DNA from: Escherichia coli
GTDB lineage: Bacteria; Pseudomonadota; Gammaproteobacteria; Enterobacterales; Enterobacteriaceae
DNA: 64,000 nucleotides
NCBI RefSeq assembly: GCF_003334815.1
Contig: NZ_QOWO01000002.1
Reading direction: 5' to 3' (one strand)
Below the pieces are notes generated by a model. That model saw nothing but the letters and a program-made list of their open reading frames with translations. It did not search any database and was not told the DNA's origin. Position 1 is the stretch's first letter; every line of letters starts with the position of its first letter. A program made the translations under genes and the position numbers. Of this stretch, positions 31,840-55,487 are shown one piece after another.

Positions 31840-31972
31840 CGCCTGAAAAGACGCGTTTAGCGTCGCATCAGGCATTATGGCGCAGTTGCCGGATGCGGCG
31901 TGAACGTCTTATCCGGCCCACAGGAACTGTAATCTTTGTAGACCGGTTAAGATGCGTCATCGCATCCGGCAA
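31840..31972. repeat. cluster of REP elements (BIME-like) downstream of torD
   Basis: Three imperfect palindromic units containing GCCGGATGCGGCGTGAACG / CGCATCAGGC-type REP motifs. Confidence 0.6.
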
Positions 31973-48734: not shown

Positions 48735-50243
<1,509 letters not shown>

Positions 50244-50337
50244 GGGACTTAGCCTGCGGCGGTTTTGTTTGGCTTCAGCAGCGGGTTGCGCTCCCTTAAT
50301 GTGCCTCGCCATATAAATTGAATGGTGCAGGGAGCGC

Positions 50338-50369
50338 GCAGGGGGCGGCCAATCGCCGCCGCCCCCTGC
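50338..50369. repeat. GC-rich perfect palindrome (12-bp arms, 8-nt loop) downstream of putP
   Basis: GCAGGGGGCGGC-caatcgcc-GCCGCCCCCTGC; not followed by a T-run on either strand. Confidence 0.5.
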
Positions 50370-50540
50370 TGTCCCGGCCTTCGGGGAACGCTTCAGCGAT
50401 TTTGACGCCACCAACACCCGAGCTGTTATTATGTTCCGGGCAAAAAGTTAGATTTGATAATCGCGGATGGACGAAATTGCTTGATATACCCGCTTATCAG
50501 TTTTACATGGAAGCTCTGATGCATTGAGTCTGGACAGTTT

Positions 50541-50575
50541 TGTCGGCTGGATACGGCGTTTACGCGGCATCCGGC
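50541..50575. repeat. REP element
   Basis: GTCGGCTGGATACGGCGTTTACGCGGCATCCGGCA matches the REP consensus. Confidence 0.55.
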
Positions 50576-50707
50576 AAGAACACATGGTTCTTTGCAAACA
50601 ATCCCATCTTTCTACCCTGGAATAATCGTTTATATCCCTTGGCATTACCTCTCTTTGTTTACATTCCAACATCATTTTATAAACATTCCGCTTGTGTTTT
50701 TCTTTGC

Positions 50708-50726
50708 CGTAATGATAATCGCTATC
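50708..50726 (+). promoter_or_regulatory. candidate Fur box upstream of efeU
   Basis: CGTAATGATAATCGCTATC matches the Fur consensus GATAATGATAATCATTATC at 14 of the last 16 positions, about 60 nt upstream of the efeU start. Confidence 0.5.
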
Positions 50727-50785
50727 ACTGCGATTTACTTTTCTTTGCATAGATTGACTCAGAAAAACGTTTAAGGGTGGGTGGC

Positions 50786-51616
50786 ATGTTTGTTCCGTTT
50801 CTCATTATGTTGCGCGAAGGACTTGAAGCCGCGCTGATTGTCAGTTTGATTGCCAGCTATCTTAAGCGTACCCAGCGAGGCCGATGGATTGGTGTGATGT
50901 GGATTGGCGTGTTGCTTGCCGCTGCGTTGTGCCTGGGCTTGGGTATCTTCATTAACGAAACCACCGGCGAATTTCCGCAAAAAGAACAGGAACTGTTTGA
51001 AGGTATCGTGGCGGTGATCGCCGTGGTGATCCTTACCTGGATGGTTTTCTGGATGCGCAAAGTGTCGCGCAACGTCAAAGTGCAACTGGAACAGGCAGTC
51101 GATAGCGCATTGCAGCGTGGAAATCATCATGGCTGGGCGCTGGTGATGATGGTCTTTTTTGCCGTTGCAAGGGAAGGGCTGGAGTCGGTCTTTTTCCTGC
51201 TGGCGGCATTTCAACAAGATGTCGGGATCTGGCCGCCGCTGGGTGCAATGCTCGGTCTTGCTACTGCCGTGGTGCTAGGCTTCCTGCTCTACTGGGGCGG
51301 TATTCGCCTCAATCTTGGTGCATTTTTTAAATGGACCAGCCTGTTTATTCTCTTCGTCGCCGCAGGGCTGGCAGCTGGTGCCATTCGCGCATTTCATGAA
51401 GCCGGATTGTGGAACCACTTTCAGGAAATCGCCTTCGATATGAGTGCGGTGCTCTCAACTCACTCGCTGTTTGGCACGCTGATGGAAGGGATTTTTGGCT
51501 ATCAGGAAGCGCCGAGCGTCAGCGAAGTCGCCGTCTGGTTTATTTATCTCATCCCGGCGCTGGTGGCATTTGCTCTGCCACCACGCGCAGGGGCGACAGC
51601 GTCTCGCTCCGCGTAA
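50786..51616 (+). CDS. efeU: ferrous iron permease EfeU (FTR1 family), apparently intact
   Basis: ORF 50777..51616; 276-aa product from MFVPFLIMLREGLEAALIVSLIASYL with two REGLE motifs (REGLEA, REGLES) in one uninterrupted frame. Confidence 0.88.
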   Translation: MFVPFLIMLREGLEAALIVSLIASYLKRTQRGRWIGVMWIGVLLAAALCLGLGIFINETTGEFPQKEQELFEGIVAVIAVVILTWMVFWMRKVSRNVKVQLEQAVDSALQRGNHHGWALVMMVFFAVAREGLESVFFLLAAFQQDVGIWPPLGAMLGLATAVVLGFLLYWGGIRLNLGAFFKWTSLFILFVAAGLAAGAIRAFHEAGLWNHFQEIAFDMSAVLSTHSLFGTLMEGIFGYQEAPSVSEVAVWFIYLIPALVAFALPPRAGATASRSA

Positions 51617-54422: not shown

Positions 54423-55487
54423 ATGGTAACGTCCTGTACTGGACATGTTTTAGATAATCAACGCGCCACCACTCGCGGAGTTTTCTCCTCCGGTAGTCAT
54501 CTCGTCACTTTGCATTTTCAACCTCATCCTTTCTTTTCATGTGTTACCGACGCCGTAAACGGTGCGCGTAGCCGTTTTTCGGCATTTTATCCAAAAGCAA
54601 ACTATGGCTTACAAGGAAGCCAACCCTCTGATGTTCGTGCGCATAATCGCGCTGCCAACGGCGCGTGTGATGAATACAAACAACTCAAGGTGCTCTCCAT
54701 GGGAAGACAAAAAGCAGTGATCAAAGCTCGTCGCGAGGCAAAACGTGTGCTGAGACGGGATTCGCGCAGCCATAAGCAGCGTGAAGAAGAATCGGTCACC
54801 TCGCTTGTGCAGATGGGCGGCGTAGAAGCCATTGGTATGGCCCGCGACAGTCGCGATACTTCGCCCATCCTCGCGCGAAATGAAGCGCAATTGCACTATC
54901 TGAAGGCTATTGAGAGTAAGCAGCTGATATTCGCCACGGGCGAAGCCGGGTGCGGAAAAACCTGGATCAGCGCAGCAAAAGCGGCAGAGGCCCTGATACA
55001 TAAGGATGTCGACAGGATTATCGTCACCCGTCCAGTTCTGCAAGCCGATGAAGATCTTGGCTTCTTACCTGGAGATATCGCAGAAAAGTTTGCTCCCTAT
55101 TTTCGCCCGGTCTACGACGTGCTGGTCCGGCGCTTAGGGGCTTCCTTTATGCAGTACTGCCTGCGACCGGAAATAGGGAAGGTGGAAATTGCGCCGTTCG
55201 CCTATATGCGTGGACGTACCTTTGAAAATGCAGTCGTCATTCTTGACGAGGCGCAGAATGTGACTGCCGCGCAAATGAAAATGTTTTTAACCCGCCTCGG
55301 GGAGAACGTGACGGTTATCGTCAACGGTGATATCACGCAATGCGATTTGCCTCGCGGCGTGTGCTCCGGATTAAGTGACGCGCTGGAACGTTTCGAAGAA
55401 GATGAAATGGTTGGGATCGTCCGGTTCGGTAAAGAGGACTGCGTACGTTCGGCACTTTGCCAACGTACGCTGCATGCCTACAGTTAA
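54423..55487 (+). CDS. phoH: PhoH, phosphate-starvation-inducible ATPase (Walker A GEAGCGKT)
   Basis: 354-aa ORF MVTSCTGHVLDNQRATT... with P-loop; the true start may be internal. Confidence 0.85.
   Translation: MVTSCTGHVLDNQRATTRGVFSSGSHLVTLHFQPHPFFSCVTDAVNGARSRFSAFYPKANYGLQGSQPSDVRAHNRAANGACDEYKQLKVLSMGRQKAVIKARREAKRVLRRDSRSHKQREEESVTSLVQMGGVEAIGMARDSRDTSPILARNEAQLHYLKAIESKQLIFATGEAGCGKTWISAAKAAEALIHKDVDRIIVTRPVLQADEDLGFLPGDIAEKFAPYFRPVYDVLVRRLGASFMQYCLRPEIGKVEIAPFAYMRGRTFENAVVILDEAQNVTAAQMKMFLTRLGENVTVIVNGDITQCDLPRGVCSGLSDALERFEEDEMVGIVRFGKEDCVRSALCQRTLHAYS

Follow-up and report, generated by a model that had tools for sequence, protein, structure and literature searches.

The GC-rich palindrome in the spacer between putP and efeU of this Escherichia coli contig very probably represents the GC hairpin that is conserved in the TRIP1 repeat (the replication risk sequence, or RRS, family), here as part of TRIP1b, the partial third copy of TRIP1 in E. 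coli; with the same high probability, the copy that carries it is a relic. The whole stretch of DNA that was analysed (64,000 nucleotides) is referred to here as the window. The palindrome itself is real, stands well above chance and has already been described. Its arms, GCAGGGGGCGGC (50338-50349) and GCCGCCCCCTGC (50358-50369), are inverted repeats with 100% complementarity over 12 nt and enclose the loop caatcgcc (50350-50357), confirming the perfect, almost all-G:C 12-bp stem with an 8-nt loop that an earlier note on this DNA had reported. A search for the pattern with up to 3 mismatches permitted returned one occurrence in the 64-kb window and none in 100 dinucleotide-preserving shuffles. 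As single-stranded DNA the 32-mer has a predicted folding energy of -16.9 kcal/mol, compared to -7.9 +/- 1.6 kcal/mol for shuffles (z = -5.5). The stem starts 94 nt 3' of the putP stop (the putP ORF ends at 50243), which the earlier note had put at about 95 nt. That note also considered the hairpin to be no canonical terminator, and this held: the sequence following the stem (TGTCCCGG on the + strand and GCGCTCCC on the - strand) lacks a T/U-run on either strand, and a terminator scan found no site at 50338-50380. Its separation of the palindrome from the REP elements was likewise correct, as the hairpin has no match to the REP/naRNA4 model and the sole REP-like match of the spacer is a weak one at 50545-50581. 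REP/BIME elements are also GC-rich extragenic palindromes located 3' of genes, and one of them is found in this spacer 175 nt beyond the hairpin, but they are unrelated to the hairpin in sequence, stem length and family. The palindrome does belong to a known repeat family and its locus does vary among close relatives, two circumstances that the earlier note had counted against its own reading, although the family is TRIP1 and not REP/BIME. Rfam searches of the window copy gave only chance-level matches to miRNA-type hairpins, and a literature text search with the letters of the hairpin returned no literal match.

The hairpin is one module within a 146-bp repeat copy at 50285-50430 that has a GC content of 63%. 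The name TRIP was reportedly used by Rudd in 1999 for three-copy intergenic repeats. The arrangement of the copy and its surroundings is as follows.

48735..50243, + strand: putP (sodium/proline symporter), a 502-aa ORF annotated as putP at the homologous place in K-12 and others
50285..50430, + strand, written on the C-rich strand: TRIP1b, a 146-bp internally deleted TRIP1/RRS copy, assigned by published position and by 81-91% identity to TRIP1a/c/d copies over two blocks
50288..50337, + strand: terminal stem-loop, GCGCTCCCT ... AGGGAGCGC, 9 bp and perfect, located as an inverted repeat
50338..50369, no strand assigned: GC hairpin of TRIP1/RRS, the 12-bp palindrome, supported by inverted-repeat and shuffle tests
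50356..50375, - strand: degenerate counterpart of the RRS G4 motif, GGGACAGCAGGGGGCGGCGG against GGGGGTGCAGGGGGCGGCGG in the RRS, located by regex search
50369..50370, no strand assigned: junction of the 125-bp deletion with a 2-nt GC microhomology, from alignment to the full-length L007 allele
50370..50430, + strand: 3' block (TGTCCCGGCCTTCGGGGAACGCTTCAGCGATTTTGACGCCACCAAC...), the surviving half of the closing helix P1, from homology and the family fold
50545..50581, + strand: REP element of a family separate from TRIP1b, a weak match to naRNA4 (REP-derived) in Rfam at 28 bits
50786..51616, + strand: efeU, intact, 276 aa (ORF 50777-51616, ATG at 50786)

Li et al. (2024, Genes 15:236, PMC10888264) describe TRIP1b as a 146-bp sequence located 41 bp past the putP stop and 355 bp upstream of ycdN (efeU). 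In their account it is a partial TRIP1a that is missing 125 bp internally and retains 84% identity to TRIP1a, and TRIP1 sequences have a G+C content of 62-65%. The window copy runs from 50285, which is 41 nt past the putP stop, to about 50430, which is 355 nt ahead of the efeU ATG. Compared with TRIP1a, TRIP1c and TRIP1d, its 5' block shows 78-91% identity and its 3' block 86-97%; positions 50368-50427 are 96.7% identical to the copy at the dusC locus of O157. The putP-efeU spacer of K-12 is 99.8% identical to that of the window. Because position, length, the 125-bp deletion and homology to the other TRIP1 copies all agree with the publication, the copy was identified as TRIP1b. Comparison with the published TRIP1b (Rudd 1999; Li et al. 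2024) shows the same locus, the same 146 bp, the same 125-bp deletion and the same GC content, with no material difference; the neighbouring efeU is intact in the window strain but is a pseudogene in K-12 MG1655, so the window derives from a K-12-like strain other than MG1655. The RSA repeat (150/151 bp, 6 copies in old K-12 annotation) was weighed for its similar length and rejected, because the relatives in K-12 number three and have unequal lengths and because the TRIP1 literature fits exactly. BoxC was rejected as a purine/pyrimidine triplex motif unlike the sequence of the palindrome. In genome annotation the hairpin therefore belongs under TRIP1b, a decayed RRS family member, and it does not merit pursuit as a new regulatory palindrome.

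The wider family was examined in 5,426 complete E. coli genomes. A megablast of 50244-50440 matched a median of 3 places per genome, with 50285-50369 and 50368-50427 matching further loci, and additional TRIP1 copies were located in the sstT-alx, yohP-dusC and aqpZ-lysO spacers. Alignment and pairwise BLAST indicate a full-length element of approximately 265-273 bp that starts with GTTGCGCTCC and ends with GATTTTGACGCCACCAAC, of which the window keeps the two outer blocks only. When the full-length element was used as query in a more sensitive search, the family was detected in 5,426 of the 5,426 genomes at 1-10 places (median 4). The published survey (PMC10888264) lists TRIP1a (aqpZ-ybjE/lysO), TRIP1b and TRIP1c (yohI/dusC-yohG) in K-12, adds TRIP1d (alx-sstT) and TRIP1e (copA-ybaP) from other strains, and documents rearrangements involving TRIP1b. 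Beyond E. coli, a 19-mer repeat scan of genome contigs recovered the family in Escherichia and Pseudocitrobacter only, apart from a few chance or contaminant contigs; the Pseudocitrobacter copies are 87% identical, near-identical RRS copies in Kluyvera are known from the literature, and a few TRIP1 copies reside on plasmids. A comparison of 19 copies, drawn from E. coli, E. albertii, E. whittamii, further Escherichia lineages and two Pseudocitrobacter species, showed a hairpin that hardly varies. The O157-type and L017 copies have two positions altered jointly on both arms (GCAGGGGGAGGA/TCCTCCCCCTGC), which leaves the stem perfect.

Several observations were made at the other loci. TRIP1c, between dusC and yohP, lies in O157:H7 (L004 1293-1556) in the opposite orientation to the K-12-type copies (L002 2501-2765 and L009 123-387). 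The dusC-proximal flank of the O157 TRIP1c resembles the flank of TRIP1a, which hints at a past exchange between the two RRS. The alx-sstT spacer of K-12 (L029 3547-3944) carries a purine/pyrimidine-rich, BoxC/triplex-like repeat (…CTCTCCCTTCCAGGGAGAGGGTCGGGGTGAGGG…) at the place where others have TRIP1d, the alleles replacing each other.

The full-length relatives of the window copy have a known activity. Pham et al. (2023, PMC10287960; 2024, PMC11194060) characterized the full-length K-12 copies at lysO and dusC as replication risk sequences, which anchor both prominent lagging-strand RecA/SSB-ssDNA peaks of the MG1655 chromosome. These elements produce gaps at any insertion site provided that the G strand is the lagging-strand template, and an inverted RRS gives no RecA/SSB peak in vivo (Pham et al.). 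The G4-forming motif of the RRS, 5'-GGGGGTGCAGGGGGCGGCGG-3', is a block to Pol I, II and IV in vitro and slows down Pol III (PMC11194060). At least one RRS is conditionally essential, and the same report equates the RRS with TRIP1 and mentions "a third partial repeat" (PMC10592627). A 2026 single-molecule preprint (PMC13308219) further reports that the forward orientation leads to a gap at essentially every replisome encounter, and that the reverse orientation, with the C-rich strand on the lagging template, leads to about 66% lagging-strand blocks in vitro. The RRS were the first sequences in bacteria for which programmed post-replication gaps and an influence on chromosome topology were shown.

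When reverse-complemented, the palindrome's right arm together with the ACCCCC behind it gives exactly the published G4 motif, so that the palindrome and the "G4 site" are one and the same place. Both RRS-lysO and RRS-dusC show homology to the putP copy and share with it a hairpin that overlaps the G4 motif and two strands that are both predicted to fold stably. They differ from it in being 222 bp long, in carrying the full G4 motif and in presenting the G-rich strand as the lagging-strand template. With regard to length, the putP copy keeps about 90 of the 222 GC-rich bp by which an RRS is recognised. With regard to the motif, a regex search gave exact matches at lysO (+ strand, K-12 915,191), at dusC (- strand, 2,229,212) and within the full-length putP allele, and none in the window or in the K-12 TRIP1b, both of which read GGGACAGCAGGGGGCGGCGG in place of GGGGGTGCAGGGGGCGGCGG because the deletion junction abuts the hairpin and the first G5 run is lost. 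A G4Hunter-type score falls accordingly from 2.3 for the RRS motif to 1.7 in the window copy.

Orientation was derived from the correspondence of the window to the K-12 chromosome. The window is collinear with approximately 1.03-1.09 Mb of K-12 in gene order, in the offsets of the tRNA and the cspA-type leader and in the 99.8% identical spacer, and the GC skew of its + strand is weakly positive. On the clockwise replichore the + strand is the lagging-strand template, which agrees with the location of the G strand of the lysO copy on the + strand. Since the G strand of TRIP1b is on the - strand (K-12 ~1,080,945) and the window is collinear with K-12, the G strand of the putP copy would serve as the leading-strand template. 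Assuming a K-12-like chromosome order, we infer that TRIP1d is also "reverse" and that only the TRIP1a and TRIP1c pair is in the gap-forming orientation. The putP copy thus lacks three features of an RRS, namely full length, the G4 motif and orientation. It differs from the RRS further in that no RecA/SSB peak has been reported at putP and in that its position is not symmetric about dif.

These comparisons are consistent with the following course of events. In a full-length RRS, as shown in the literature, the G-rich strand is the lagging-strand template; with one hairpin arm and the adjacent G5 run it folds when single-stranded at the fork, and the fold blocks Okazaki-fragment synthesis and leaves a gap of up to ~2 kb onto which SSB and RecA are loaded. 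The alignment shows directly that the putP copy goes back to a full-length element and lost 125 bp between short, imperfect direct repeats on either side of its most structured core. The core and the first G-run went with this deletion, and the copy additionally has its G-rich strand on the leading-strand template. The resulting sequence would no longer be RRS-active and would persist as a neutral relic, which could still form a strong extruded hairpin or cruciform, may lead to minor pausing of polymerase on the C-rich lagging template and may act as a homologous recombination substrate with other copies. Most likely, then, the putP copy is functionally inert save for hairpin formation and occasional recombination. 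Three points run counter to complete inertness. By analogy with the ~66% in vitro blocks of the reverse orientation (PMC13308219), TRIP1b might retain some activity through its C-rich hairpin on the lagging template. Its G4 propensity is reduced yet non-zero (score 1.7). Lastly, the 2,347 genomes with the deletion allele still have well-conserved sequence in the hairpin and both flanking blocks, which could reflect either recent common ancestry or constraint.

The internal deletion is defined by alignment to L007, the full-length allele of strain 1919D62 that is identical in all other respects; a single 125-column gap falls between 50369 and 50370, and the same 125-column gap appears against TRIP1a and TRIP1c of K-12. 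Its endpoints lie within the imperfect direct repeats CCCCCGGGCTCTGGCGAAC and CCCCGGCCTTCAGGGAAC, which bracket the most structured segment, and replication slippage is its likely cause. An independent deletion of ~122 bp with nearly the same endpoints was identified in a TRIP1d-type copy between alx and sstT of a divergent Escherichia (L012 1076-1215, SCPM-O-B-8794). These two independent deletions suggest a structure-driven deletion hotspot between the imperfect direct repeats.

The frequency of the deletion was assessed with a 50-mer specific to the junction, neither arm of which is long enough to seed a match alone, against the 5,426 complete E. coli genomes. The junction was present in 2,347 of them (43%), including 2,064 with at least 99% identity over the 50-mer. 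A K-12-type spacer (at least 80% of a 661-bp query) was found in 3,563 of the 5,426, and the approximately 1,200 genomes (~22%) that make up the difference between 3,563 and 2,347 have a copy longer by 111-125 bp. The longer putP copies that were examined are full-length elements with the exact G4 motif. This longer, apparently undeleted putP allele, present in about a fifth of the complete genomes, is not described in the published TRIP1 survey (PMC10888264). Approximately 34% of the 5,426 genomes are without a K-12-type TRIP1 in the spacer, and these are of two types. In B2/ST131-type strains the spacer measures 219 bp, contains a canonical terminator and lacks TRIP1. In O157:H7-type strains (L031, strain Z866) a gene for a 447-aa hypothetical protein (WP_001247490.1, 1793-3136) is inserted, and just past putP (L031 1690-1825) there is a diverged, AT-richer TRIP1 relic overlapping the 3' end of that gene. 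Over 82 nt the relic retains ~75% identity, and its alignment scores 60, compared to 17 +/- 2 for shuffles. The 5,426 genomes therefore include at least four forms of the putP-efeU spacer (window 50244-50785 against L007, L030 and L031). The hypothetical protein WP_001247490.1 itself contains three internal repeats of a W..x..RNYL-type motif. Inspection of the spacers of H83 (NZ_CP053787.1), H91/H93 and others revealed an IS1 insertion in one genome, and in several a PGAP "hypothetical protein" over TRIP1b that is probably a spurious ORF, e.g. 50318-50527 (+) or 50223-50417 (-).

The natural alleles at putP, i.e. the reverse-oriented full-length element, the 125-bp deletion, the diverged O157 relic and the absence in B2, constitute material for dissecting the family. 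This allelic series can show which modules (the G-run, the GC hairpin and the inner core) and which orientation gap formation needs, and the family together with the series is of greater interest than the window copy itself.

The structure of the full-length element bears on whether the family acts as DNA or as RNA. RNAalifold applied to 15 full-length copies predicted five modules: the long closing helix P1, two hairpins of which the first has an AUGGAU loop, the GC hairpin and a terminal hairpin. The 15 family members also share, with C:G/U:G variation, the predicted helix of the terminal stem-loop (50288-50337). Double changes preserve seven pairs, a count that represents few independent events given the close relationship of the 15 copies and that refers to helices predicted on the G strand. 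Counted over these helices, G.U cells number 100 and mismatches 18 on the G-rich strand, compared to 7 and 111 on the C-rich strand, and the G strand folds about 16 kcal/mol better than the C strand. The asymmetry in G.U pairs fits the RNA model and the DNA-level RRS model equally well, as G.T wobbles stabilise single-stranded DNA too.

The architecture of this fold resembles that of TwoAYGGAY (Rfam RF01731, Weinberg et al. 2010; gathering score 43 bits). One might accordingly propose that TRIP1 is, or derives from, a TwoAYGGAY-class small RNA gene on the G-rich strand, of which the palindrome would be the 3' hairpin module and the putP copy a pseudogene without the core; we regard this proposal as possible but doubtful. 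Full-length copies match the whole TwoAYGGAY model on the G strand at 29.6-33.1 bits, scores that all remain below the gathering score, and the E-value was 0.07 in the first, unbiased 18-kb search (0.0013 in a 341-nt search). The window copy, with its core deleted, gave no match to the model at E <= 10. In the matches, P1 of TwoAYGGAY aligns with the GGCGTCAAAATCGCC / GGCGATTTTG..CGCC helix and the first AYGGAY loop with CAUGGAUG. The RNAalifold prediction, obtained independently of the model, gave the same architecture of a long P1, an AUGGAU-loop hairpin and an AGGGAY-loop hairpin; the doubly changed pairs and the wobble asymmetry described above point in the same direction, subject to the same relatedness of the copies and the same stabilisation of single-stranded DNA by G.T wobbles. 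TwoAYGGAY and full-length TRIP1 on the G strand resemble each other in a long closing helix and two hairpins, which are predicted for TRIP1 with an AUGGAU loop in one of the two, and in a multi-copy intergenic distribution. The second loop is AGGGAY in TRIP1 and AYGGAY in TwoAYGGAY, but accepted Psychromonas members of TwoAYGGAY also carry ACAGGGACG loops (the AGGGAY variant).

Additional support for the small RNA proposal comes from Pseudocitrobacter, where genuine TwoAYGGAY cores (49.2 bits) are situated ~90 bp from TRIP1 in opposite orientation in two species (L014 2218-2281 in P. faecalis and L025 5670-5733 in P. vendiensis). A 12-bp G-rich hairpin and then TTT follow these cores, and one of them folds with its own 12-bp G-rich hairpin directly after P1, which is the position of the palindrome in TRIP1. 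The primary-sequence similarity between TRIP1 and this neighbouring genuine motif is nevertheless marginal (29 against 19 +/- 2.3 for shuffles), and a scan detected no promoter-like site near the window copy. Among the papers listed in a literature search on TwoAYGGAY (7 of 12), none dealt with RRS or TRIP1. A broader and equally tentative suggestion is that TRIP1/RRS are GC-rich relatives of TwoAYGGAY, that they are or come from multi-copy structured RNA genes or RNA-like repeats on the G-rich strand, and that replication blocking by the RRS is a by-product or a second use of a TwoAYGGAY-like fold. The sub-threshold resemblance and the wobble asymmetry together raise the question of whether the family is selected as DNA only or also as RNA.

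The hairpin might act in RNA either as an exonuclease barrier in the putP 3' UTR or as an aid to termination where an ordinary terminator is missing, and we consider this improbable. The hairpin is on the putP sense strand 94 nt past the stop, the predicted RNA fold retains the 12-bp stem, and a terminator scan of the K-12-type spacer found no canonical terminator ahead of the efeU promoter region. In B2 strains, moreover, a textbook terminator (GGCAGAGGGCAATCAGTGATTGCCCTCTGC plus a T-run) is located at the equivalent place and TRIP1 is absent; this genuine putP terminator has a different sequence and does not occur in the window. The hairpin resembles a Rho-independent terminator in being a GC-rich stem-loop soon after a stop codon, and differs from it in having no U-run. 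Orientation relative to the adjoining genes is inconsistent across the family: aqpZ and putP have the C-strand as their sense strand, alx and the dusC of K-12 have the G-strand, and between O157 and K-12 TRIP1c has been inverted in situ. The wobble-pair pattern likewise favours the strand opposite to the putP sense strand. Term-seq tables (PMC7815308) list no 3' end after putP and are uninformative on this point, putP being barely expressed in those media. Neither the RNA-stability hairpin nor the protein-binding palindrome offered by the earlier note found support.

The earlier note had also raised the possibility of a remnant of a small mobile element, and of this the remnant stands, as an internally deleted TRIP1/RRS copy, while the mobility found no support. 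A small non-autonomous (MITE-like) element inserted downstream of putP would be in keeping with the spread of the family over 5 intergenic loci with presence/absence polymorphism, with the copies in Pseudocitrobacter, with the near-identity reported in Kluyvera and with the few plasmid copies, but is an unlikely origin given that no convincing terminal inverted repeats or target-site duplications were found and no associated transposase was seen, that the absent alleles at alx-sstT, putP-efeU and copA-ybaP have unrelated sequence in replacement and no clean empty site, that 99% of ~16,000 TRIP1 copies occupy the same five loci (PMC10888264), and that the diverged O157 relic at the same place implies an old vertical residence.

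Rfam searches of the remainder of the window identified Ysr251, an antisense RNA family described in Yersinia, at 55289-55482 on the - strand (189 bits). Further matches above threshold were a cspA-type thermoregulator leader (20735-21157), a REP-derived naRNA4 (31840-31918), ES036 (37805-37847) and a tRNA (1837-1921).
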